A stretch of 64,000 bases of DNA from an uncultured Prevotellaceae bacterium (GCA_947169115.1 CAMVOK010000010.1:7091-71090), one strand, 5' to 3'; positions 7,601 to 21,673 are shown, counted from the stretch's first letter. Program-made: numbers and translations. The notes: generated from the letters alone by a model not told the origin.

Positions 7601-9849
7601 ACTCCTGACAGTACTTTCTTCAACTGATTCACTTTTTCGTGACAGCCAGCCACCCAAAGCTTATTGCCTTGGGTAATCTGGTGGTCGGCTCCGGCAACAC
7701 GGATATTACCATGCCGATTCTCTATGCCCACAACCAGACAACGGTATTGGTTGCGGATTCCACTGTCTTTGATAAGTATGCCTTCCAGGGGACTGCCTTC
7801 TCCTACCTCGATGCAGGCAAGTTGCATGGGGGATGTCTCATCAAGGCTGGGAGGGATGGTTTCGCTATTCATGCGCTGGCGGAGCTGTTCTATGCTTTGG
7901 TCGTCGCCTACGACTTCGAGTGTATCGTGGGGAAAGAGGATATTAGAACCGCCTGGTATATTCAGGCTTTGGTGGTCGCGGATAATTGCCGCGATATGTA
8001 CTCCATTTCGTCCCCCTATACGTAGTTGAGCCAGTGTCTTGCCGCCCCAGGCTGTACCTTCAGGTAAACTTAGGCGGGCGATGTGGAGATCGCGGCCACG
8101 AAGTTGACGGGCATAAGCGGGTCCGGAATTTTCTCGCTGTGAAAGATTGTCTAAAAAGGTATCCTCCATCCGCATACTTATTTTACGTATCCATTTGCTA
8201 CGAACAATGAGCAACACAATGGCAGTGGCAACGAGTATGTGCCAGTACCAACGGAAGGGGGAAAGGTAGTTGAGTACGTAATAGACTACGTTCACGGCAA
8301 AAATGAAGCGGACGATAATGGAGATTTCGACGAATGCCGTGCTTAGGGCTCCACGTTGTCGCAGTGCATTGGCTTCCTTCGAACGGTTATTCTTCATGAT
8401 GATGGGGCGCAACAGGGGAGCCAGAAGTAATAACACCAAGACCGCACAGATGGCATTGCCAGCCCAGTGCCCAAACAGGGAACGGCACATGAGCAGCAAC
8501 GATACGAATAATAATGTGATAACGGCAATGGAGAGAACGCCGTAAATTAGGGTTTGGAGGAGTAGCTTACGGAGGAAGGAATAAAGAATGTTGGAAAATG
8601 AAGCCTCAGAGGACAGGTCGAAGTCTTTGGTCTCCCGAGAGGTCTTCTTTTCTCCAGAATCGTTCTTCTTATTCTGGGGCTCTTTTTCTTTTCCTTTTAG
8701 TTTTCCAGCCAGCTTAATCATATAGGGCGTGAGGAATGTCGTAATGATACTTGTTGCAACAACGATGGGCATCAGATAACCTTCTGTTACGCCCAAAGAC
8801 TCACCCAGACCAGCAATGATAAAGGCAAATTCACCAATCTGCGCCATTGAGAAACCGCTCATTAGCGCATCGTTCCTGCTGCTGCCAGAAAGCAAGTATC
8901 CCATGGTGCCAAATATGGCCTGTCCCAAAAGGATGGTAAATACGAGTACTACAATGGGTAGCCAGTGGACAAGTAAGTCGCTGGGTGAAACCATCATACC
9001 CACGGATACGAAGAAGATGGCTCCGAACAAGTCTTTTATCGATGAAATGGACGAGTCGATGCGTTCTGCCTCTACGGTTTCGGCTAATATGCTGCCCATC
9101 ATGAACGCTCCCAATGCGGTGCTATATCCTACAGAATCGGCAACGACCACCATAAGGAAACACAGACCGATGGAGACAATGACAAGCGTTTCCTTGTTGA
9201 TGAACGAACGGTTGCGACTTAGAAAGGTTGGAATAAACCACATGCCCACCACAAACCACACCAATAAGAAGAAACCGAGTTTGACGAGGGAAAGTATTAG
9301 TTCTGAACCTTGAAAACGATTGCTGACAGCCACTGCCGACAAGATAACCATGACGACGATGCCTAATATGTCCTCCAGAATAAGTACTGACATCACTTTG
9401 CTGGCAAAGCGACGTGTCATCAGTCCCATGTCATCGAAGGCTTTATATATAATGGTTGTACTGGACATGGCCAACATTCCTCCCACAAACATACAGTTAA
9501 TGGGTGTCCATCCTAACAGATAGCCAGCTCCGCATCCCATGCCCCACATGCTGAGCATGATGAAAAAGGCTGCAATGATGGGCGATACTCCTCCCTTCAG
9601 AATCTTCTTGAATGAAAACTCCAAGCCCAGGGAGAACATGAGGAAGATGACACCTATCTGGCTCCAGACCTCAATGGACTCATGTTCCTCAACTGTGGGG
9701 AAGAGAGACATGTTAGGGCCAGCAATGAAGCCAGCCAATATGTAACCCAGCACCAAAGGTTGCTTCAACCGCTTAAAGATAATGGTTGTAATTCCAGCAA
9801 CTATTAGTATGAGAGCCAAGTCGCTGATGAGATGGGGCAATTCTGCCAT
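7597..9849 (-). CDS. CPA2-family cation:proton antiporter with two C-terminal RCK_C (TrkA-C) domains
   Basis: N-terminus [39 protein letters not shown] is typical of Kef/YbaL-type exchangers, and there are many TM segments. The C-terminal [17 protein letters not shown] and [15 protein letters not shown] units look like RCK_C. Confidence 0.85.
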
Positions 9850-9855
9850 AATCCT

Positions 9856-11154
9856 TTATTTTTGTATAGTGATGATGAACAGTTTATCGTTGTGCCTGAT
9901 TTTAGTAGGAAGCGGTATGCTGATGTGCCAACCTTTCCGACCTGTATCAACAGGCTGCAAATCATAGCGTATTTCTTCGACAGTGGCATAAAGGGCACCT
10001 GTGGTTGGACCAGTGACCAAGATTCGGTCGCCCACATGAAGTTCACATGCCTCTATCTTGAACTCTGCCACTTTTAGTTTAGAGTAATAACGAATACCCC
10101 GGCCACAATAGGTTTTCCGTTCTGTTGCCGACGAACCATGATTCTTGGTCCATTCGCCCAATAACTGACCTTGGTAATAACCATCCCAAAAACCACGGTT
10201 AAAGACACGTGCTAAGCGTTCGTTCCATTGTTGTTTGCGCTCTTCTGTGAAACTACCCTCCTGTACACTCTGGATGGCCTCCTTGTAACAACGGACTACG
10301 GTATCTACATAGTCGGCTCCTCGGGCTCTGCCTTCAATCTTGAATACACGTACACCAGCAGCCATCATTCTGTCGATGAAATCAATGGTTTTAAGGTCCT
10401 TGGGACTCATGATGTATTTGTTGTCAACTTGTAGCTCAGTTCCCGTTTCGGTATCATGCACGGTGTAGGAACGGCGACATAGTTGCATGCACTCACCACG
10501 ATTGGCCGAACGTCCCATGTTGTCGAGACTTAGATAACACTTGCCACTGACTGCCATACAGAGGGCACCATGACAGAACATCTCAATGCGTACCAGTTGG
10601 CCACTGGGACCTGTGATGTGTTGTTCCTCAATCTGCCTGTATATCTCGGCCACCTGTTCCATACGTAGTTCACGTGCCAAGACAACGACATCGGCAAAAT
10701 GGGCATAGAAACGCAGGGCCTCGATGTTGGAGATGTTGAGTTGAGTGGAGAGATGAACCTCCAGACCTATCTGTCGGGCATAAGTCATGGCTGCCACATC
10801 CGAAGCGATGACGGCAGATATCTGGGCTGCCTTGGCTGCATCCAGTATCTGTCGCATGAGTTCTATATCTTCGTCATATATAATAGTATTAACGGTCAGA
10901 TAACTTTTCACTCCAAAAACCTGGCATTCTCGGGCAATGTGGTGAAGGTCATCGATGGTGAATGCCGAGGCAGAGTGAGCTCGCATGTTTAATCGCTCAA
11001 TGCCGAAGTATATGCTGTCGGCACCGGCACGTAGGGCGGCAGCCAAAGACTCGGGGCTACCTACAGGAGCCATTATTTCATAGGCGCCCCCACCCCCTTT
11101 CCCCTCCCGAGGAAGGGGAGTAGTCACATTTGTATAATCGATATTATTTGTCAT
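9856..11154 (-). CDS. Peptidase U32 family protein (collagenase-like)
   Basis: YEIMAPVGSPESLAAALRAGADSIYFGIERLNMRA and MFCHGALCMAVSGKCYLS are U32 hallmarks. The first ~20 codons come from a repeat element (see findings). Confidence 0.85.
   Translation of the reverse strand: MTNNIDYTNVTTPLPREGKGGGGAYEIMAPVGSPESLAAALRAGADSIYFGIERLNMRAHSASAFTIDDLHHIARECQVFGVKSYLTVNTIIYDEDIELMRQILDAAKAAQISAVIASDVAAMTYARQIGLEVHLSTQLNISNIEALRFYAHFADVVVLARELRMEQVAEIYRQIEEQHITGPSGQLVRIEMFCHGALCMAVSGKCYLSLDNMGRSANRGECMQLCRRSYTVHDTETGTELQVDNKYIMSPKDLKTIDFIDRMMAAGVRVFKIEGRARGADYVDTVVRCYKEAIQSVQEGSFTEERKQQWNERLARVFNRGFWDGYYQGQLLGEWTKNHGSSATERKTYCGRGIRYYSKLKVAEFKIEACELHVGDRILVTGPTTGALYATVEEIRYDLQPVDTGRKGWHISIPLPTKIRHNDKLFIITIQK
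11085..11154 (-). repeat. Hairpin/G4 element copy with conserved left flank; forms the start codon and first ~22 codons of the U32 peptidase
   Basis: The minus strand reads atgacaaataatatcgattatacaaatgtgactactccccttcctcgggaggggaaagggggtgggggc. Confidence 0.8.
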
Positions 11155-11175
11155 CGTTTATTATTTTTTCGGTAT

Positions 11176-12210
11176 TTACGCCCTCCCCTCGGGGAGGGTT
11201 GGGATGGGGGTTTCGTCCATTATCTTGAACAGTTCTTCGACCGTTTCGGCGCGAAGCATCCGGATGCGGGTTTCGCGGAAGTTAGGAATTCCCTTGAATA
11301 GAGGGGAGGCGGCCAGATGACGACGGCTGTGCAAGATGCCGCGATACTCGCCGAGACGTTCTACGCTGGTCAGCACTTGCTGGCGTAGGACGTTGAGGCA
11401 CCATAGCCCCCCTTCGCTCCCCCCGAGGGGGGAAGAATCGCCTCCCCTCGGGGAGGTTGGGAGGTGGCTGAGGAGGGTTTTTATCTCCTTGAATATCCAA
11501 GGTCTTCCAAAAGTGGCACGACCGACCATTATGGCATCGACTCCGTAGCGTTCGAAGCACTCTTTGGCTCTTTCGGGAGTGGTGATATCGCCGTTGCCGA
11601 TAATGGGAATGTGGATGCGCGGATTGCGCTTTACCTCGCCGATGAGGGTCCAGTCGGCTTCGCCTGTGTACATTTGGCTGCGTGTACGACCATGGATGGT
11701 AAGGGCCTGAATGCCGCAGTCTTGCAGCTGCTCGGCAAGTTCGGTGATGATGAGGTGTTCCTGATCCCAGCCTAAACGAGTCTTTACGGTTACAGGTGTG
11801 TTGGGCACTGCATTTACCACGGCTCGTGTAATTTCCAGCATGAGGGGGATGTTTTGCAGCATTCCTGCTCCAGCCCCTTTCCCAGCTACTCGTTTTACGG
11901 GACAACCGAAGTTGATGTCCAGAATATCGGGATGAGCCTGTTCAACAACAATCTGTGCAGCATCACGCATGGCTTCAACGAAACGTCCATATATCTGTAT
12001 GGCAACAGGACGCTCCTCGTCGCATACCTGTAATTTCTCAATACTACGATTGACTCCTCGAACAAGTGCATCGCTCGACACAAACTCGGAATATACGAGA
12101 TCGGCTCCCATCTGTTTGCACAACAGGCGGAAACCGATGTCCGTCACATCCTCCATTGGGGCGAGGAAGACGGGATAAGGCGTATCAAAGTGAACGGGGC
12201 CGATGTTCAT
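11176..12210 (-). CDS. dusB: tRNA-dihydrouridine synthase (DusB-like) carrying repeat-derived insertions
   Basis: PVFLAPMEDVTDIGFRLLCKQMGADLVYSEFVSSDAL, DINFGCPVKRV and TIHGRTRSQMYTGEADW are Dus TIM-barrel motifs. Its ATG overlaps the upstream mod stop codon (ATGA). Confidence 0.85.
   Translation of the reverse strand: MNIGPVHFDTPYPVFLAPMEDVTDIGFRLLCKQMGADLVYSEFVSSDALVRGVNRSIEKLQVCDEERPVAIQIYGRFVEAMRDAAQIVVEQAHPDILDINFGCPVKRVAGKGAGAGMLQNIPLMLEITRAVVNAVPNTPVTVKTRLGWDQEHLIITELAEQLQDCGIQALTIHGRTRSQMYTGEADWTLIGEVKRNPRIHIPIIGNGDITTPERAKECFERYGVDAIMVGRATFGRPWIFKEIKTLLSHLPTSPRGGDSSPLGGSEGGLWCLNVLRQQVLTSVERLGEYRGILHSRRHLAASPLFKGIPNFRETRIRMLRAETVEELFKIMDETPIPTLPEGRA
11180..11210 (+). repeat. Hairpin/G4 element copy forming the last codons and stop of dusB
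   Basis: ccctcccctcggggagggttgggatggggg. Confidence 0.8.
11406..11466. repeat. Two head-to-head hairpin element copies in frame inside dusB
   Basis: gccccccttcgctccccccgaggggggaag + cgcctcccctcggggaggttgggaggtgg. Encodes SPRGGDSSPLGGSEGG. Confidence 0.8.
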
Positions 12211-14168
12211 AGTGCGTAGGTGGTTTCGTCACCACAGATATTACGAATCTTCATGCGGAGTGGCTTCTGGTCGCACTTGATGGTGGCATCCCAGAAGTCT
12301 TGGGTCTTCTTGCCATTAAGAATGACATAGCCCAAGCGGTCAATCTTCACTTCCGCATCGCTGTGCCAGGGAGCTTGCTTGTCAGCGGTGGAGCAGTCCA
12401 GACTGACCCATTCGATGGTTTCAAGTCCCTCATCGCTTATCTCAATAGGATTGAACGCTTTGCCTTTGGCTATGGACTGCTGCTGACCCTTCATGTTCAC
12501 TTCCTCAATCTTGCGCAGCACACGGTCGCTGTGGAAACTCTTCAGGTCCACTTTCCAGCCTTTGAACAGGTTGTCTTGTGTTTCCGTTAGTTCCCACTCG
12601 ACCTCGTCTTCCACCACCACTTCGTCCAGCACCTGCTTTAGGTCGCGCAGTTCTATGTCGATGATACTACGAGTGTTTTTTTCCTTGATGAACTGTTCTA
12701 TTTCCTCACGATCTGTGATATCGATGTAATATACAATGACGCGCCGTACATCGTCTGGCAGATAAGGCAGTTTATCAATAATGTTGTTCATTTGCGGTTT
12801 GTCGAGCAGACGTGTAGAACTGTCCATCAGGTTAGGCAGATAGACTGGCATCATGCCGTGTTGGGAATGAATGATACCGCCTGCCCAAAAGTCGCTCAGA
12901 CTGTCAAGGAAACACAACCCTTTTATGAGGTGCTTCAATTTGTCCATCGTCTGAACGGGATTGCGATAAAGAGACACACCGTCTTTTACTTCCAGGACAT
13001 CGAACTCTGCTTTGTCAGCCAATAGGCGGTCTCTTACGGTCTGAATGCTATTGATTCCAATGTCGCAGTGGATAAAGTTACGCCCCAACTTATTGGATAC
13101 TGCAGCTGTTACGCCGCTACCACCAAAGAAATCAGCAACAAGCATTCCTTCGTTACTGCTAGCTTTGATGATACGCTCCAATAAAGCCTCAGGCTTCTGA
13201 GTGGCATAGTCAACACGTTCTTCTGCTTGGGAGTTTACAGCATTTACATCAGTCCAAATATCATCAAGAGGTATACCCTCGGTTTCGTCAAGATATACTT
13301 TTAGGCGCATTCCTCCGGATGCAGTATAATAAATTTTGTTTTCTTTCTTTAATTGTTCTATAGTAGCTTGTGTTGTAGCTGTTCCCAAGAAGGCATCCTT
13401 GAATCTACGTTCTTTGCTATCAATTACTTCTACATGAGAAAATCTTTGTTCGATGTACTCATCGCTATAAGGCAAATATTGCGTATTATATAGGAATTCA
13501 TCACTTTTACCATAAACAAGAATGTTATCGTGGTTCTTTCCCATTGCATTTTTTCCCTTAAACCCACTAGATGTTTGTCGTTTCCATGTAACGTCATTAA
13601 TGAAGTTCTCTTCCCCAAAGATTTCATCCATCAAGATCTTTACATAGTGAACGATATGCCAATCCAAATGCACATAGATACTTGCCTCATCGCTCATGAT
13701 GCTCTTCATTGCCATCAGGTTCTCGTACATCCAATTGAGATAACGCTCTTTGTCCCATACGTCACCATACATCTTTTCCTCGAAGGCGCGTAGTTCCTCA
13801 ATGTCAAGTTCGCTTTCTGCCTGGGCAATAGCCGCTGCCACCTTGGGATTACGACGGATATACACCTTCTTGGCATAGTCGGCACCGCTGGCAAAGGGCG
13901 GGTCAACATATATGAGGTCAACAAAGATGCCTTTGTCTCTGAGATAAGCACAAGCCGACACACACTCGCCACGAATAACCAGATTGTTGGGATTCTGTCC
14001 AATCTGCTCTTTCAACTCCATCTCATAGAGGGGCATACCTCTCTGCACGCGCTCAATGACTTGGTCATTGTCACGATAACGCAACACCCGCTTGGTGCGT
14101 ACAAAATTGTCTAATATGGCCTGTCCTTCAAGCGTATTGGGGAAATAGGGAACATATTTAATAGCCAT
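12207..14168 (-). CDS. Type III-like restriction-modification methyltransferase (Mod, beta-class N6A/N4C MTase) with an extra ~250-aa C-terminal region
   Basis: Motif IV LIYVDPPFASGADY (aa ~85) comes before motif I VADFFGGSGVTAAV (aa ~340). That order is the beta-class arrangement of Type III Mod proteins. Confidence 0.85.
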   Translation of the reverse strand: MAIKYVPYFPNTLEGQAILDNFVRTKRVLRYRDNDQVIERVQRGMPLYEMELKEQIGQNPNNLVIRGECVSACAYLRDKGIFVDLIYVDPPFASGADYAKKVYIRRNPKVAAAIAQAESELDIEELRAFEEKMYGDVWDKERYLNWMYENLMAMKSIMSDEASIYVHLDWHIVHYVKILMDEIFGEENFINDVTWKRQTSSGFKGKNAMGKNHDNILVYGKSDEFLYNTQYLPYSDEYIEQRFSHVEVIDSKERRFKDAFLGTATTQATIEQLKKENKIYYTASGGMRLKVYLDETEGIPLDDIWTDVNAVNSQAEERVDYATQKPEALLERIIKASSNEGMLVADFFGGSGVTAAVSNKLGRNFIHCDIGINSIQTVRDRLLADKAEFDVLEVKDGVSLYRNPVQTMDKLKHLIKGLCFLDSLSDFWAGGIIHSQHGMMPVYLPNLMDSSTRLLDKPQMNNIIDKLPYLPDDVRRVIVYYIDITDREEIEQFIKEKNTRSIIDIELRDLKQVLDEVVVEDEVEWELTETQDNLFKGWKVDLKSFHSDRVLRKIEEVNMKGQQQSIAKGKAFNPIEISDEGLETIEWVSLDCSTADKQAPWHSDAEVKIDRLGYVILNGKKTQDFWDATIKCDQKPLRMKIRNICGDETTYAL

Positions 14169-14201
14169 TTTACACGTTGCCTTGTTTGTTTAGAATTTCT
14201 A

Positions 14202-14220
14202 AGGTGCAAAAATTGCACCT
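14202..14220 (-). other. 7-bp-stem hairpin in the ORF6N-mod intergenic gap
   Basis: aggtgca-aaaat-tgcacct. No evidence for its function. Confidence 0.3.
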
Positions 14221-14234
14221 CAAATATAGTACAC

Positions 14235-14855
14235 TCACTTATTGACAATAAACCCTATTGGATTTCTTTGTTTGTTAATCTCCCTTTGTGTTGACTCTGC
14301 TTGTAGTTGAGCGATTGCATCGTTGATATTTTCCAGTTGCCTTGCAATTATCTCTTGGTCATTGGCAACCATCTCATTGATATCGTTCTGGTCACGTAGT
14401 GTTTCATCCATATCGATACGCAATTGTTTGATTTCGGAATGAATCTGCTCTATCTGCAGTTGAGTGTCAGTCATTGCCAATAAGGCTTGCTGCATTTGGA
14501 AGAAGGCTCGCATGATATTGATGTTTACCTGAATGGCAATAGGAGTCCTGAGAAGTCCAGAGAGCATGGCTATGCCCTCCTGAGTGAACGCGTATGGAAG
14601 ATATTTGCTGTGCTTTCCCCGTCCATTCTCTATGGTGAAAAAATTGCACCTTAAAAAATCATACTCTTCTTTGGTCAGTTCGAACATGAAATCTTCTGGG
14701 AAACGTTCCTTGTTCATGCGGACAGCTCTTTTCAGATTCTTCGTCTCTATTCCATATAACATACTGAGATCGCTGTCTATCATTATCTTTCGACCTCGAA
14801 GTTCGTAAATATGTCCTTTAATGGACTCTGTACTTAGTATTACAGTATTATCCAT
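14235..14855 (-). CDS. ORF6N (KilA-N/Bro-N-like DNA-binding) domain protein with a C-terminal coiled coil
   Basis: IYELRGRKIMIDSDLSMLYGIETKNLKRAVRMNKERFPEDFMFELTKEE...GKHSKYLPYAFTQEGIAMLS matches the ORF6N family pattern. The C-terminus is heptad-like (QLQIEQIHSEIKQLRIDMDE...). Confidence 0.8.
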   Translation of the reverse strand: MDNTVILSTESIKGHIYELRGRKIMIDSDLSMLYGIETKNLKRAVRMNKERFPEDFMFELTKEEYDFLRCNFFTIENGRGKHSKYLPYAFTQEGIAMLSGLLRTPIAIQVNINIMRAFFQMQQALLAMTDTQLQIEQIHSEIKQLRIDMDETLRDQNDINEMVANDQEIIARQLENINDAIAQLQAESTQREINKQRNPIGFIVNK

Positions 14856-14875
14856 GTTACTTTCTCCTAATTATT

Positions 14876-17746
14876 CTATAATTCAGTTTCTGAACTCGCG
14901 CGTTCCAAATAGTTTTCATTAAAGAAGTTCTTGATTGCTTGCATCGTTTTTTGTCTGCGCTGCTCTGCATTGAGTGTGTCCTCCAAATAGAGAAAGTCGA
15001 AACGCTGGTATCCAAACTTGTCGTTGTTTTTCTTGACGAACTCTGACATGAAGTCGAGTTTGTCCTTGAACTTGGCGGCAAAGCCCTCGCCCTTGGTTTC
15101 GATGATGATAACCTTTTCTATCTGCTTCTGCTCATTACGGCTGAGCAAGAGGAAGTCGGGTACATACCTACCGATGTATCGCCAATTGTTACTTACACGT
15201 TTGTAGCAATCAATCTTGAAATCAGTCAGTGTATCGTCGCCATTGAAATAGACCTCCAACACCTTTTCCTTAATCAAAGGAATAACTTCTTGGGATAGGA
15301 AATGCCTCTCCAAACCGCTATCGAAGCGGTAAGGCAGATAATGGTACGTCTGACTACGCTCTGGATGTGGGTCGGATCTTGGATTGCGCAGCGCGGAAAC
15401 ATCTATGCCCAAGGCCTCCAGTTCTGCAATCTTTGCTTTCTGCTCTGTTGTCAACTCTTGCTGAGGAGGCTTCTCGTCCCATTCCATAATCTCATGAACG
15501 GCCTGCTGGTCGGGGAAGAACTTTTCGCTGTCCTCAACAGGCGATGCCAGTCGCTCAATTTGCAACAAACGGGCTTGTTTGGGCAGGATTTTCTCTTTCG
15601 TCGTAAAGTCTCGTTGAGGAGCAAACGCCTGACGGATAAGCGAACGGATGCGTTGGTGGTCGTACTTTCTGTTTTCCAGTAACACACCATCTTTCTCTGT
15701 AGTAATCTTTGCGAAGATATATTGCAGTTCTGTATCGCACTTTTTCAAATTGGCCACCGTCAACATTCCGAAACTCTCTTTGGCTATCTGATGGAGCCAC
15801 CATTGGAAGGAAGTACGTATTTCCTCTTTGTTTTCCTGTTCAACGGAAGCAATTAGATTACCTTCCATATCCTGTTGATGAATCAGGGAAATATCTGCCA
15901 GAGCCAGAATGTCCTTGCTTTGCAACAGTTGTGCAGGGTCGTTGGCATCGTCGATGATAAGTGTTTCGTAGCTGACCTTCAGTTGATAGAAATTTATCTC
16001 AGGCACCTGCATATGGAAGCGTTCTATCAGTTTTTGCTCCACGTTTGGTTTGCCGCCAAATTCCTTCAGCGTGATATTCTGCTGCTGTTGCAACTGGCGG
16101 TTTAGTTTCTCGGCATTGAACTTGTTGAGCCAGATGAGGGCGGTCTCCTGACTATTCTTTACAACCTGACGCAGACACCGGCAAGAGGTCTGGAGCACCA
16201 TATTCGTGGGACAGACGCCCTTTTGTGGCAGGATAACACCTGTCAGGCTTTTGCAGTCCCAGCCCTCCTTACCAATTTGGACAAGGAGCACTATCTTGTA
16301 TTTCGAGATAGAAGTGTCGAGAGAAGCAAAAGCTGTCTCAGAACCTTCATGCTGAGGGTATTGCTTATTTCCGCCGTGATAAGGCAGAATGGTATCTGTG
16401 GGGTTCAGTCCGTAGGATGCCACAATCTCTGACACCAACGGATAGATGCTTTCTTCAAGCGTCTCAATCTGACCGCAATAGATGGCCAGTTTGGCACAAG
16501 TACCATTCGAATACATGGTGTCGCGATACTTGTCGAGGAACTCACGTACACCGTTGGCAACAATCGTCTGGGTGTCGTTATCCTCAAACTTCACATCTGG
16601 GTTTTTCAGGAAGTTGCCAATACCCTCTACCAGCGGATAATAATACACCACGTTGGCAAGGTCGGTGTTCTTGATGGTCAGTGTTTCTGATATCTTCAAC
16701 GGCTCTGCACTATCCAAATAAGGCGTGCCTGAGAAACCGAGCACGGAGTTGAACGTATGCTTCTCCGTCCATTTGTTCACCACCTGACGGAGCTTAATTT
16801 CGCCATCAGCTGCATGATGAACCTCGTCGATATAAACGGCAAGGTGAGGGATGGAACCAATGAGTTCGCGCAGTTCTTTGGCCAATTCCATTCGTTTAAG
16901 TTCCTCTTCAGAGAAGAGCGATGGGTCTTGATTGGTATCGAAGCGATCAAGAATAACCTTTTCGGCATTGGTGATAGCCACCAGACCCTTCAAGTCTTCA
17001 AACGGTTGGTGGTTGTTGATTTTCTGGGCATTGGGGTTCTTGATGCGGTTGCTCTTGTTGGCCGTTTTCTGCTCATCCAGAATCTCGAACTTAATCAGTC
17101 GGCGCAATGGGGCAGCCTTGGCTTCAGGGATTATCCACGAGGGGTCAAACTCCTTGATATGCTTCAAACTGGGTACAATCGATGACTTCAAGCCCGACGG
17201 TGCCATCACCATGAAGTTATGAGCAAAGGCTGGATTGTTCGGCTCGTTCTGAGCAAAGTAGAGGTCAAGATAGATGAACGCGGCCATCAGATAGGTCTTG
17301 CCGGCTCCCATAGGCAGACTAAAGAGGTAGTCGGTGTAAGTGACTCCGTAGAATATCTTCAGGAACGTGGTCTCATAATTTATCTCGTCGGCGTGCTGCT
17401 TGATATATTGCTCCAGTTCAGGAGCCAATTGCTTGCCTTTTTTGTCATGTAGGCGAGAATACTGGAACAAAGCCACAGCAGCCTTGTTTGTGCTAAAAAT
17501 CTGGCGTACAGTTTCTGTCAGCTCCACCTGACCGATGTTGGTGTCGTTGAAAACACCATCGACAAAAAGTCGCCACAGAGGCTGGTTCTTGCAAGCTATC
17601 TTCAGAAACAAATATGTTTTGATGGCTTCCAACTGAGCATCGCGCATCATACCCCGCTGTTCTATATACTGCAGCAGTTCCTTGATGGTGCAATTGTCAG
17701 ACAAAAGCCACTCGTTGCGCTTCTTCTCGATGAGCTTATAGAACAT
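14876..17746 (-). CDS. Type III restriction enzyme Res subunit (SF2 helicase plus C-terminal PD-(D/E)xK nuclease)
   Basis: Walker A LPMGAGKTYLMA, DEAH-type box VYIDEVHH, motif III GFSGTP, motif VI-like QTSCRCLRQ. C-terminal nuclease signature RYVPDFLLL...VIIIETKGEG. Confidence 0.85.
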   Translation of the reverse strand: MFYKLIEKKRNEWLLSDNCTIKELLQYIEQRGMMRDAQLEAIKTYLFLKIACKNQPLWRLFVDGVFNDTNIGQVELTETVRQIFSTNKAAVALFQYSRLHDKKGKQLAPELEQYIKQHADEINYETTFLKIFYGVTYTDYLFSLPMGAGKTYLMAAFIYLDLYFAQNEPNNPAFAHNFMVMAPSGLKSSIVPSLKHIKEFDPSWIIPEAKAAPLRRLIKFEILDEQKTANKSNRIKNPNAQKINNHQPFEDLKGLVAITNAEKVILDRFDTNQDPSLFSEEELKRMELAKELRELIGSIPHLAVYIDEVHHAADGEIKLRQVVNKWTEKHTFNSVLGFSGTPYLDSAEPLKISETLTIKNTDLANVVYYYPLVEGIGNFLKNPDVKFEDNDTQTIVANGVREFLDKYRDTMYSNGTCAKLAIYCGQIETLEESIYPLVSEIVASYGLNPTDTILPYHGGNKQYPQHEGSETAFASLDTSISKYKIVLLVQIGKEGWDCKSLTGVILPQKGVCPTNMVLQTSCRCLRQVVKNSQETALIWLNKFNAEKLNRQLQQQQNITLKEFGGKPNVEQKLIERFHMQVPEINFYQLKVSYETLIIDDANDPAQLLQSKDILALADISLIHQQDMEGNLIASVEQENKEEIRTSFQWWLHQIAKESFGMLTVANLKKCDTELQYIFAKITTEKDGVLLENRKYDHQRIRSLIRQAFAPQRDFTTKEKILPKQARLLQIERLASPVEDSEKFFPDQQAVHEIMEWDEKPPQQELTTEQKAKIAELEALGIDVSALRNPRSDPHPERSQTYHYLPYRFDSGLERHFLSQEVIPLIKEKVLEVYFNGDDTLTDFKIDCYKRVSNNWRYIGRYVPDFLLLSRNEQKQIEKVIIIETKGEGFAAKFKDKLDFMSEFVKKNNDKFGYQRFDFLYLEDTLNAEQRRQKTMQAIKNFFNENYLERASSETEL

Positions 17747-17752
17747 TATTTG

Positions 17753-18232
17753 TCATTTTGTGGAGAACGCCAATGCATACATTTTCATCTGCTTGAGCAT
17801 GGCCAAGAGTCCATTTGAACGGGTGGGAGAAAGATGTTCGCGCAGACCGATTTCCTCAATGAAATAAAGGTCGGCTGCAAGAATATCCTTGGGTGTTTGG
17901 TTGTTCAGCACACGTAGCAGGAGTGTGACAATACCTTTCACGATGAGAGCATCGCTCTCTGCCTGAAAATGGACACGCCCATCGATGAGGTCGGCCTGTA
18001 ACCATACGCGGCTTTGGCAACCATCGATGAGGTTCTGTTCCGTCTTATACTGTTCGGGCAAAGGCTCTTGGTCGCTACCCATCTCAATGAGCAGCTGGTA
18101 TCGGTCCATCCAGTCGTCAAGTTCTTGGAACTCTTCAATGATCTCGTCTTGCCTACGGCGTATTTCAGCCCCCTCCTGACCTCCCTGAGGGGAGGAAGTG
18201 ATTTCGTTTATATTATCGAGATTGTTAGTCAT
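17753..18232 (-). CDS. sufE: SufE-family cysteine desulfuration (sulfur acceptor) protein
   Basis: DRYQLLIEMG...LIDGCQSRVWL...DALIVKGIVTLLLRVLNNQTPKDIL...GLREHLSPTRSNGLLAMLKQMK includes the conserved Cys-loop GCQS. The N-terminal ~20 codons are repeat-derived. Confidence 0.85.
   Translation of the reverse strand: MTNNLDNINEITSSPQGGQEGAEIRRRQDEIIEEFQELDDWMDRYQLLIEMGSDQEPLPEQYKTEQNLIDGCQSRVWLQADLIDGRVHFQAESDALIVKGIVTLLLRVLNNQTPKDILAADLYFIEEIGLREHLSPTRSNGLLAMLKQMKMYALAFSTK
18168..18232 (-). repeat. Hairpin element copy with conserved left flank; forms the start codon and first ~21 codons of sufE
   Basis: The minus strand reads atgactaacaatctcgataatataaacgaaatcacttcctcccctcagggaggtcaggagggggctg. 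Confidence 0.8.
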
Positions 18233-21665: not shown

Positions 21666-21673
21666 CAAATATA
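21666..21673 (-). promoter_or_regulatory. Bacteroidota -7 promoter box (TAnnTTTG) for the Lrp operon
   Basis: The minus strand reads tatatttg, 30 nt upstream of the ATG at 21635. Confidence 0.45.

Follow-up and report, generated by a model that had tools for sequence, protein, structure and literature searches.

How a three-gene block with the look of a restriction-modification (R-M) system came to stand between two housekeeping genes, and what its middle gene does there, is the question raised by a 64,000-nt stretch of DNA from an uncultured Prevotellaceae bacterium (GCA_947169115.1, CAMVOK010000010.1:7091-71090). This whole stretch is called the window in the following, and all coordinates refer to it. 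An earlier note, made from the sequence by itself, had described a Type III-like R-M island in reversed gene order, composed of res, a gene for an ORF6N protein and mod, and spliced without gaps into a housekeeping gene string. We consider it likely that 12211-17752 is a horizontally acquired Type III-like R-M module that carries an autonomous ORF6N gene as cargo, the latter being needed neither for restriction nor for its control. The locus consists of five co-directional open reading frames (ORFs), all on the minus strand, in the order sufE, res-like gene, ORF6N, mod and dusB, and the three inner genes are the ORFs that the earlier note had given, including the 206-aa ORF6N protein:

17753..18232, minus strand: sufE, the upstream housekeeping flank (Pfam SufE, 168 bits)
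17747..17752, minus strand: left junction, the 6-nt spacer caaata between the sufE TGA and the res ATG, read directly
14876..17746, minus strand: res-like gene, 956 aa, with a predicted layout of helical N-terminus, superfamily 2 (SF2) ATPase of two RecA-like domains, middle region and C-terminal PD-(D/E)xK nuclease
14235..14855, minus strand: ORF6N cargo gene, 206 aa (Pfam ORF6N, 107 bits, residues 15-99)
14169..14234, minus strand: ORF6N-mod spacer, with scars and possible signals
12207..14168, minus strand: mod gene, 653 aa, a predicted beta-class N6-adenine DNA methyltransferase of the Type III Mod type (Pfam N6_N4_Mtase, 147 bits)
12207..12210, minus strand: right junction, the mod TGA overlapping the dusB ATG as ATGA, read directly
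11176..12210, minus strand: dusB, the downstream housekeeping flank (Pfam Dus, 263 bits; NCBIfam DusB, 287 bits)

Both outer junctions read as described before, with the res ATG 6 nt past the sufE stop and the mod stop overlapping the dusB ATG. An assembly chimera or artefact is ruled out by contigs of four independent ruminant-gut metagenomes, from sheep, goat and others, which span both outer junctions as well as the res-ORF6N-mod joints.

Among 80 dusB loci, scanned with one genome per species, the 13 closest (DusB 68-84% identical) all have sufE directly abutting dusB and keep the neighbours GATase/dipeptidase, M28 peptidase, SufE and DusB, with U32 next in most; Res or Mod was found at dusB in none of the 80. 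Since sufE adjoins dusB in the 13 related species, the 5.5-kb res-ORF6N-mod block is, on comparative grounds, an insertion, in agreement with its earlier description as an R-M island within a housekeeping string, and the island does not occur in all relatives. In L008, a relative whose site is empty, sufE stop and dusB ATG overlap (gcATGAat), so that the island entered exactly at the sufE/dusB ATGA overlap, a translational coupling, and rebuilt the same overlap with mod. The occupied site is found again in the bioreactor-metagenome contig L088/L089 (Res 90%, Mod 77%, SufE 91% and DusB 87% identical), the right junction of L088 being the same as in the window, and in the same-species contig L178 (97-98% nucleotide identity). 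At other loci of the family nothing is shared 5' of res up to its ATG or 3' of mod up to its stop, and the mod genes mostly end in TAA, not TGA. Since the flanks share nothing outside the res start and the mod stop, the transferable unit is essentially the coding block alone. A mobile-element explanation for the island was considered and set aside: there is no tRNA in the window, no direct or inverted repeats were found flanking the island, and no integrase lies beside it in the window, an integrase being present only in the rearranged contig L178. Separately, a distant family member (Res 60% identical; L166:1-700) lies about 125 nt from a dusB start in divergent orientation; here the module is associated with the 5' side of dusB for a second time and independently.

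The arrangement of the inner genes follows a pattern of the whole family, which is abundant among the Prevotellaceae and Bacteroidaceae of rumen and gut and whose Res relatives fall into >5,000 clusters at 90% identity and 858 at 50%. Our junction survey took 86 loci with both genes, which gave 78 unique junctions. In all 78, res precedes mod; 60 of them (77%) have no cargo and read "...FFNV TAA + 12 nt + ATG", and 18 hold an extra gene, as identified by Pfam and PADLOC:

RhuM (PF13310): about 10 junctions
DUF1016/YhcG PDDEXK nuclease: 5 junctions
ORF6N: L088/L089, with a shortened 131-aa copy in L112; the window is a further case
IS200-like transposase over a RhuM remnant: 1 junction (L125)

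The cargo types are scattered over the Res clades. Among cultured carriers, Xylanibacter brevis (GCA_000621725) has the res-mod pair with an empty slot. The res-to-mod order is a fixed family rule, not a local rearrangement, and the third gene is optional, occupying a facultative slot with alternative fillings. The reversed order and the embedded third gene that had drawn attention to the island are thus both present, but the order holds throughout the family, and a third gene is absent from 77% of it. A review of Type III systems makes no mention of an alternative gene order. In the junction with the transposase (L125:3782-4542) the slot opens RhuM-like (ATGGACGACAAAGG...) and runs into an IS200-like Y1 transposase, by which the cargo appears to have been destroyed or replaced. 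Where the module lies outside housekeeping strings, genes for GmrSD_N, a DpnII/MboI-type nuclease, RhuM or Schlafen-AlbA are often found 3' of mod (L001, L086, L090), and sometimes an Xre-type helix-turn-helix (HTH) gene 5'.

In the ORF6N protein a DNA-binding head (residues 15-99) is followed by a long helical tail, at the end of which stands a conserved IGFI; no catalytic domain was found in it by Pfam, NCBIfam or PADLOC. Its description as an ORF6N/KilA-N-type protein with a coiled-coil tail is borne out for the ORF6N domain, at 107 bits, while the coiled coil is plausible only: residues 110-200 are helix- and heptad-compatible, and a crude, home-made heptad score lay about 1.7 standard deviations above shuffles, which is not significant. 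An identical ORF6N protein occupies the same slot in 8 other contigs. The ORF6N protein of L088, at the same chromosomal site, is 43% identical and conserved over its full length including IGFI, and the insertion points of the two genes differ, being inside the res tail in the window and past the res stop in L088. Full-length homologues of 35-47% identity, annotated as 'ORF6N domain-containing protein', occur in Bacteroides, Parabacteroides, Alistipes and Legionella; those of about 45% identity in Bacteroides and Parabacteroides stand alone between housekeeping genes, where ORF6N genes seem to insert on their own. In B. finegoldii (L176) a single ORF6N gene lies between rsmD and a DUF3822 gene, and in Parabacteroides distasonis (L177:4837-6570) three tandem ORF6N genes of about 187 aa each stand directly upstream of leuS. 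An ORF6N relative is present in five of 50,697 phage records, and we found no paper that links ORF6N to restriction-modification. From these comparisons ORF6N is best read as exchangeable cargo; the role of a core subunit or controller is unlikely because of the stand-alone homologues, the count of five phage records in 50,697 and the 77% of the family without cargo. The protein is matched by PDC-S05 models of PADLOC (PDLC04856, 2.6e-49; PDLC04869, 6e-49; PDLC04849, 6e-34), and the definition of the PADLOC PDCs was drawn from genes nested in BREX, DISARM and Type I R-M systems (Payne et al., bioRxiv 10.1101/2024.01.29.577857).

Within the slot the sequence carries traces of change:

14876..14917, minus strand: altered res 3' tail, in which ENYLERASSETEL plus stop replaces the consensus V-stop after FFN (14 loci compared)
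14202-14220: perfect 8-bp hairpin in the ORF6N-mod spacer
14198-14224: 27-nt, 89% copy of ORF6N codons about 67-75 (14629-14655) in the ORF6N-mod spacer
14221-14228, minus strand: TATATTTG, a Bacteroidetes -7-like box in the ORF6N-mod spacer

The consensus res ending AAC GTG TAA persists as the relic AACGTGTAA (14170-14178), 1 nt before the mod ATG, and in one frame the ORF6N-mod spacer reads YLRCNFCTLE..GNV-stop. These spacer features suggest either that a second copy of ORF6N was deleted or that recombination has left its footprint. The absence of flanking scars claimed before therefore holds for the outer junctions, which are scarless, but not for the inner slot with its altered res tail, res-end relic and 27-nt partial ORF6N duplicate. 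The island had also been judged AT-rich by eye, and a guanine plus cytosine (GC) content of 45.3% versus 47.8% for the window agrees with this modestly. As a whole the island is not AT-rich, since only ORF6N and the Mod recognition segment stand out. The GC content is 47.0% for res and 46.6-47.9% for the conserved parts of mod, with codon usage near the gene pool; ORF6N, at 40.1%, is the lowest of the 42 window genes, and the segment for the target-recognition domain of Mod has 35.9%. Low GC marks these two exchangeable modules, not the whole island.

The assignment of the module to an R-M class rests on the two core proteins, whose main parts are as follows:

13209..13601, minus strand: target-recognition domain of Mod, residues about 190-320, hypervariable, 35.9% GC
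12210..12971, minus strand: conserved C-terminal region of Mod, residues about 400-653, by family conservation
17294..17308, minus strand: Walker A GAGKT, Res residues 147-151, invariant in alignments of 22 and 59 sequences
16817..16828, minus strand: Walker B/motif II DEVH, Res residues 307-310, invariant in the same alignments
15089..15160, minus strand: nuclease core PD(864)...E(883)xK(885) of Res, invariant in the same alignments

In Mod, DPPF (residues 89-92) precedes FGGSG (348-352), which is the order remarked on before, and both motifs are invariant in the family. Among 69 distinct Mods the identity to the window Mod is 80-93% over residues 1-189 and 321-653, and 16-36% with indels over residues 190-320, so that the stretch between DPPF and FGGSG bears the signature of a central target-recognition domain. 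In a comparison of the family profile with the PDB the best matches were the Type III Mods ModH5 (6k0w, 7e-23) and EcoP15I Mod (4zcf_A, 1.5e-22), and the alignment to both extends from motif IV across the recognition domain into motif I. A Foldseek search with the low-confidence Mod model (pLDDT, the predicted local distance difference test, of 56) returned Type III Mods in all of its top 8 places, Mbo45V Mod being among the best. The MTase_II and MTase_III models of PADLOC score Mod similarly. By sequence and model comparison Mod is clearly Type III Mod-like and closer to Type III Mods than to Type II methylases.

A C-terminal extension of about 250 aa beyond the methyltransferase core had been ascribed to Mod. 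In EcoP15I Mod the C-lobe of the methyltransferase reaches to residue 516, and a Res-contacting C-terminal domain (CTD) covers residues 539-644 (PMC4490356). Since EcoP15I Mod has C-lobe and CTD in this place, most of the supposed extension is expected in a Type III Mod, and what remains of it is that the window Mod is about 70 aa longer past the recognition domain. By analogy, residues about 400-653 are presumed to be the equivalent of the end of the Type III Mod C-lobe plus the Res-contacting CTD, and this conserved region is likely to serve as the platform for Res. The AlphaFold model, confident only at residues 520-653, gave no assignment for the fold of the C-terminal domain.

Mod also differs within the species. 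The contig L178 (k141_570044), aligned with 8277-17647 of the window, has an identical ORF6N, but its Mod recognition domain is a different one, and homology is lost at 13296-13579. In place of the first approximately 33 codons of res and everything upstream of 17647, it has a region that holds a tyrosine integrase and a nitroreductase-like gene, owing either to a rearrangement or to the insertion of an element into res. By these differences, specificity swapping and Res decay are both still under way within the species.

For Res, the helicase and nuclease motifs quoted earlier are all present and family-invariant (GAGKT 147-151, DEVH 307-310, GFSGTP 337-342, PDF 863-865 and ETKG 883-886). Pfam ResIII matches the protein weakly, yet above threshold (29.3 bits, cut-off 22.5), and Pfam RE_endonuc (PF19778) falls at the catalytic core in nine of ten diverse family members, below its threshold (14-21 bits as against a cut-off of 23.4). 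The AlphaFold model (pLDDT 76.7) has a helical N-terminus, two RecA-like domains, a mixed middle part and a C-terminal alpha/beta domain with PD864...E883xK885. With this model Foldseek found EcoP15I Res (4zcf_C) as the top and longest match (E 3e-10, 803 columns). In three of the four metagenomes res is longer by an in-frame insertion of 12 nt, or 4 codons, after 16015 (CTCCATTCGTGA, plus strand).

Several results weigh against the reading of the island as a Type III-like R-M module with ORF6N cargo. The Type III Res sequence models all miss the window Res, though phage P1 Res, used as a control, passes every one of them: PADLOC REase_III matched neither the window Res nor 9 relatives down to 32% identity, Pfam RE_endonuc stayed below its cut-off, a comparison of Res with PDB sequences, alone and as a 22-sequence profile, gave nothing above noise, and hhalign of the Res profile with phage P1 Res aligned only the Walker A region, with a probability of 11%. 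The margin of the EcoP15I fold match over generic SF2 helicases and remodellers is small (3e-10 versus 7e-10), the template modelling (TM) scores being low, and the AlphaFold model of Mod, built on a 28-sequence family alignment, is poor at its pLDDT of 56. Expression is represented by one weak RNA-labelled run of ambiguous library type with tiny contigs, and no methylation motif, cleavage or phage data were found for any family member. The sole assayed PDC-S05 representative, a RhuM-domain protein, gave an approximately 1000-fold drop in plating efficiency for T7 and T5 (PMC12881386); since similarity between ORF6N and RhuM is undetectable, this protection is not transferable to ORF6N. What stands of the Type III assignment is the architecture, the sequence and fold of Mod and the layout of Res, while the Type III Res sequence models do not recognise the latter. 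We therefore chose the label Type III-like rather than Type III, as the fold and layout of Res match EcoP15I but the sequence models fail, and regard the Res-Mod system as one of Type III-like architecture and probable mechanism with a distinct Res lineage.

The ORF6N gene might instead be a purely selfish or decaying passenger of mobile-element origin, kept in an operon that is hard to lose and of no benefit to the host. Its GC content, the lowest in the window, the insertion scars and partial duplicate that adjoin it, the truncated 131-aa copy in the slot of L112, the IS200-like gene over the RhuM remnant in L125 and the homologues scattered singly or in tandem among housekeeping genes would all fit such an origin, which is the main alternative and yet an unlikely one: the gene is intact and identical in 8 independent contigs, its product is conserved over the full length, the C-terminal IGFI included, at 43% identity, and it matches models built from defence-embedded genes. 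A different view makes ORF6N a second-line guard wired to the enzyme. Such a guard would bind to Res-Mod, or to the DNA that this complex yields, and inhibition of the enzyme by an anti-restriction protein of a phage would release or activate it; PrrC in the Type Ic EcoprrI locus is the precedent (PMC12707154). ORF6N does lie strictly inside the operon with tight spacing, in a slot that repeatedly draws the defence-candidate genes RhuM and YhcG nuclease. As no effector domain can be recognised in it beside the DNA-binding head and the helical tail, as close homologues occur in non-R-M contexts and as 77% of the family is without any cargo, we hold this to be improbable. No better are the chances we give to its general form, in which the 12-nt gap is a dedicated docking slot and RhuM, YhcG nuclease and ORF6N are functionally coupled to the enzyme, being activated, for example, when a phage blocks or evades it. 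If that were true, the locus would be a modular immune cassette with two layers and the first case of a PrrC-like arrangement in a Type III-type system, and it would sit in a Res lineage missed by current defence finders.

A controller, which had been among the roles offered for ORF6N before, would act as an analogue of C proteins and, after transfer, determine when or in what ratio Res and Mod are expressed. This idea is invited by the place of a DNA-binding protein between the two enzyme genes, just upstream of a promoter-like box and a hairpin, but the 77% of relatives whose slot is empty keep the 12-nt res-mod gap, the alternative fillings are non-regulators (RhuM, PDDEXK nuclease), and the same site accommodates two ORF6N alleles that share only 43% identity. 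With a domain that is ORF6N and not Xre/HTH_3, and a gene downstream of res, such a role is hardly credible. It is also very doubtful that the pair serves something other than classical restriction, be it as a methylation-guided helicase-nuclease for another purpose or as an inactive Res whose Mod lives on as an orphan epigenetic methylase. The position of Res outside all Type III Res sequence models and the replaced res 5' end in L178, according to which Res can be lost while Mod stays, speak in favour of this; the catalytic residues of ATPase and nuclease are, however, invariant over relatives down to 55% identity, the recognition domain diversifies fast, as expected under phage or plasmid pressure, and the module often stands beside GmrSD, DpnII-type and RhuM genes in defence islands.

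We thus prefer the horizontally acquired Type III-like module with autonomous cargo, and propose the following course of action. The segment 12211-17752 would encode a two-subunit, ATP-dependent R-M module of a Bacteroidales family, in which Mod, presumably as a dimer, reads a short site via its exchangeable central recognition domain and methylates adenine. Res, as an SF2 motor with a C-terminal PD-(D/E)xK nuclease, is presumably inert without Mod; it would dock on the conserved C-terminal region of Mod and cut unmethylated incoming DNA. The 12-nt gap between res and mod is a recurrent landing place for single-gene cargo, namely RhuM, DUF1016/YhcG nuclease or ORF6N, and ORF6N most likely is an autonomous accessory, a defence-candidate or anti-mobile-element factor, which travels and is expressed with the operon.

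With regard to expression, other genomes have a TAnnTTTG-like box 20-30 nt 5' of res, while the window offers only 6 nt there. A scan for sigma-70 promoters and terminators gave nothing above shuffles and is unsuited to Bacteroidetes, and a search for TAnnTTTG boxes was used in its place, the results of which are suggestive only. On the minus strand between 11 and 22.5 kb the only intergenic boxes are those at 21673 and 14228, and both read TATATTTG. The box at 21666-21673 stands upstream of the first gene of a long minus-strand string (21635 down to about 9856) and is likely to be the promoter of the whole string, the island included. Because there is no room for a promoter box 5' of res, we infer that the island, which would have no own promoter upstream of res, is read through from the housekeeping operon, while the cargo-borne box is a candidate internal promoter that perhaps boosts mod and dusB.

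The flanking genes carry a further element. The true start of sufE probably lies about 20 codons 3' of the ORF start, since relatives of SufE align to residues 38-159 only and the L088 homologue has 139 aa. An exact look-up of the window SufE found no entry. A 16-nt GC-rich palindrome, CCTCCCCTCGGGGAGG, has about 10 sites in the window versus 0.12 expected (5848, 11182, 11441, 18180, 18266, 35839, 54898, 55628 and 57261). Several copies, which are inside ORFs, encode Gly/Pro/Glu-rich inserts, two of them in dusB and one in the probable N-terminal over-extension of sufE. The palindrome brackets the island at a distance, is absent from the island junctions, and looks like a repetitive extragenic palindromic (REP)-like element tolerated in coding sequence.

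The locus has consequences for how such systems are counted and studied. Since Res is annotated only as "DEAD/DEAH box helicase" and is invisible to the Type III models of PADLOC, defence censuses of rumen and gut microbiomes probably score the system as an orphan methylase plus a PDC. The naturally empty and variously filled forms of the slot offer a clean way to test the roles of RhuM, YhcG and ORF6N cargo, and the exact splice into an ATGA-coupled junction, with neither mobility gene nor flanking repeat, illustrates how defence modules may spread and then rely on the transcription of a host operon.

In the prototypes of Type III systems mod customarily precedes res, although this order is not strictly defining. 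The class is marked by an asymmetric site of 5-6 bp that is methylated on one strand, and by cleavage that depends on ATP, requires two sites in head-to-head orientation and falls 25-27 bp away. The window module shares with EcoP1I and EcoP15I, and with the ModH5 and Mbo45V Mods, the two subunits, a beta-class Mod with DPPx before FxGxG, an exchangeable inserted recognition domain and a conserved C-terminal part, as well as a Res built of SF2 ATPase, spacer and C-terminal PD-(D/E)xK nuclease. It differs in having res before mod, in contrast to the mod-then-res order of phage P1, in an extra N-terminal helical region of about 135 aa in Res, in a Res undetected by Type III Res hidden Markov models (HMMs) or by comparison with EcoP1I and EcoP15I Res, in the approximately 70 aa by which Mod is longer past the recognition domain, and in the facultative cargo slot between the genes.

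With embedded defence genes, such as PrrC and the PADLOC PDCs, the locus has in common a small extra gene nested between the core genes of a restriction system, and its slot cargo belongs to PDC-S05 (ORF6N, RhuM) and PDC-S02 (DUF1016/YhcG). DUF1016 and RhuM have been reported between Type I core genes (PMC9881135). Here, however, the host has two genes and is Type III-like, a class outside the survey of Payne et al., and the pattern of embedded defence genes, which was seen in Type I, BREX and DISARM systems, is thereby extended to a compact host of two genes. A PrrC-like guard carries an effector (nuclease/NTPase) domain, whereas the embedded ORF6N has none. The C proteins of R-M systems are small Xre/HTH_3 regulators, a constant part of their families and encoded 5' of the nuclease gene, and ORF6N differs in all three respects. 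The ORF6N/KilA-N proteins of phages and Bacteroidales chromosomes have the same ORF6N domain, but these homologues stand alone, while the window copy lies inside an R-M operon. The arrangement conforms to what is known of cargo genes nested in defence operons, here in a family that is poorly catalogued, and what it adds is modest: a widespread Type III-like lineage with a fixed res-to-mod order, a Res missed by current models, a compact cargo slot and a codon-precise splice in a housekeeping operon.

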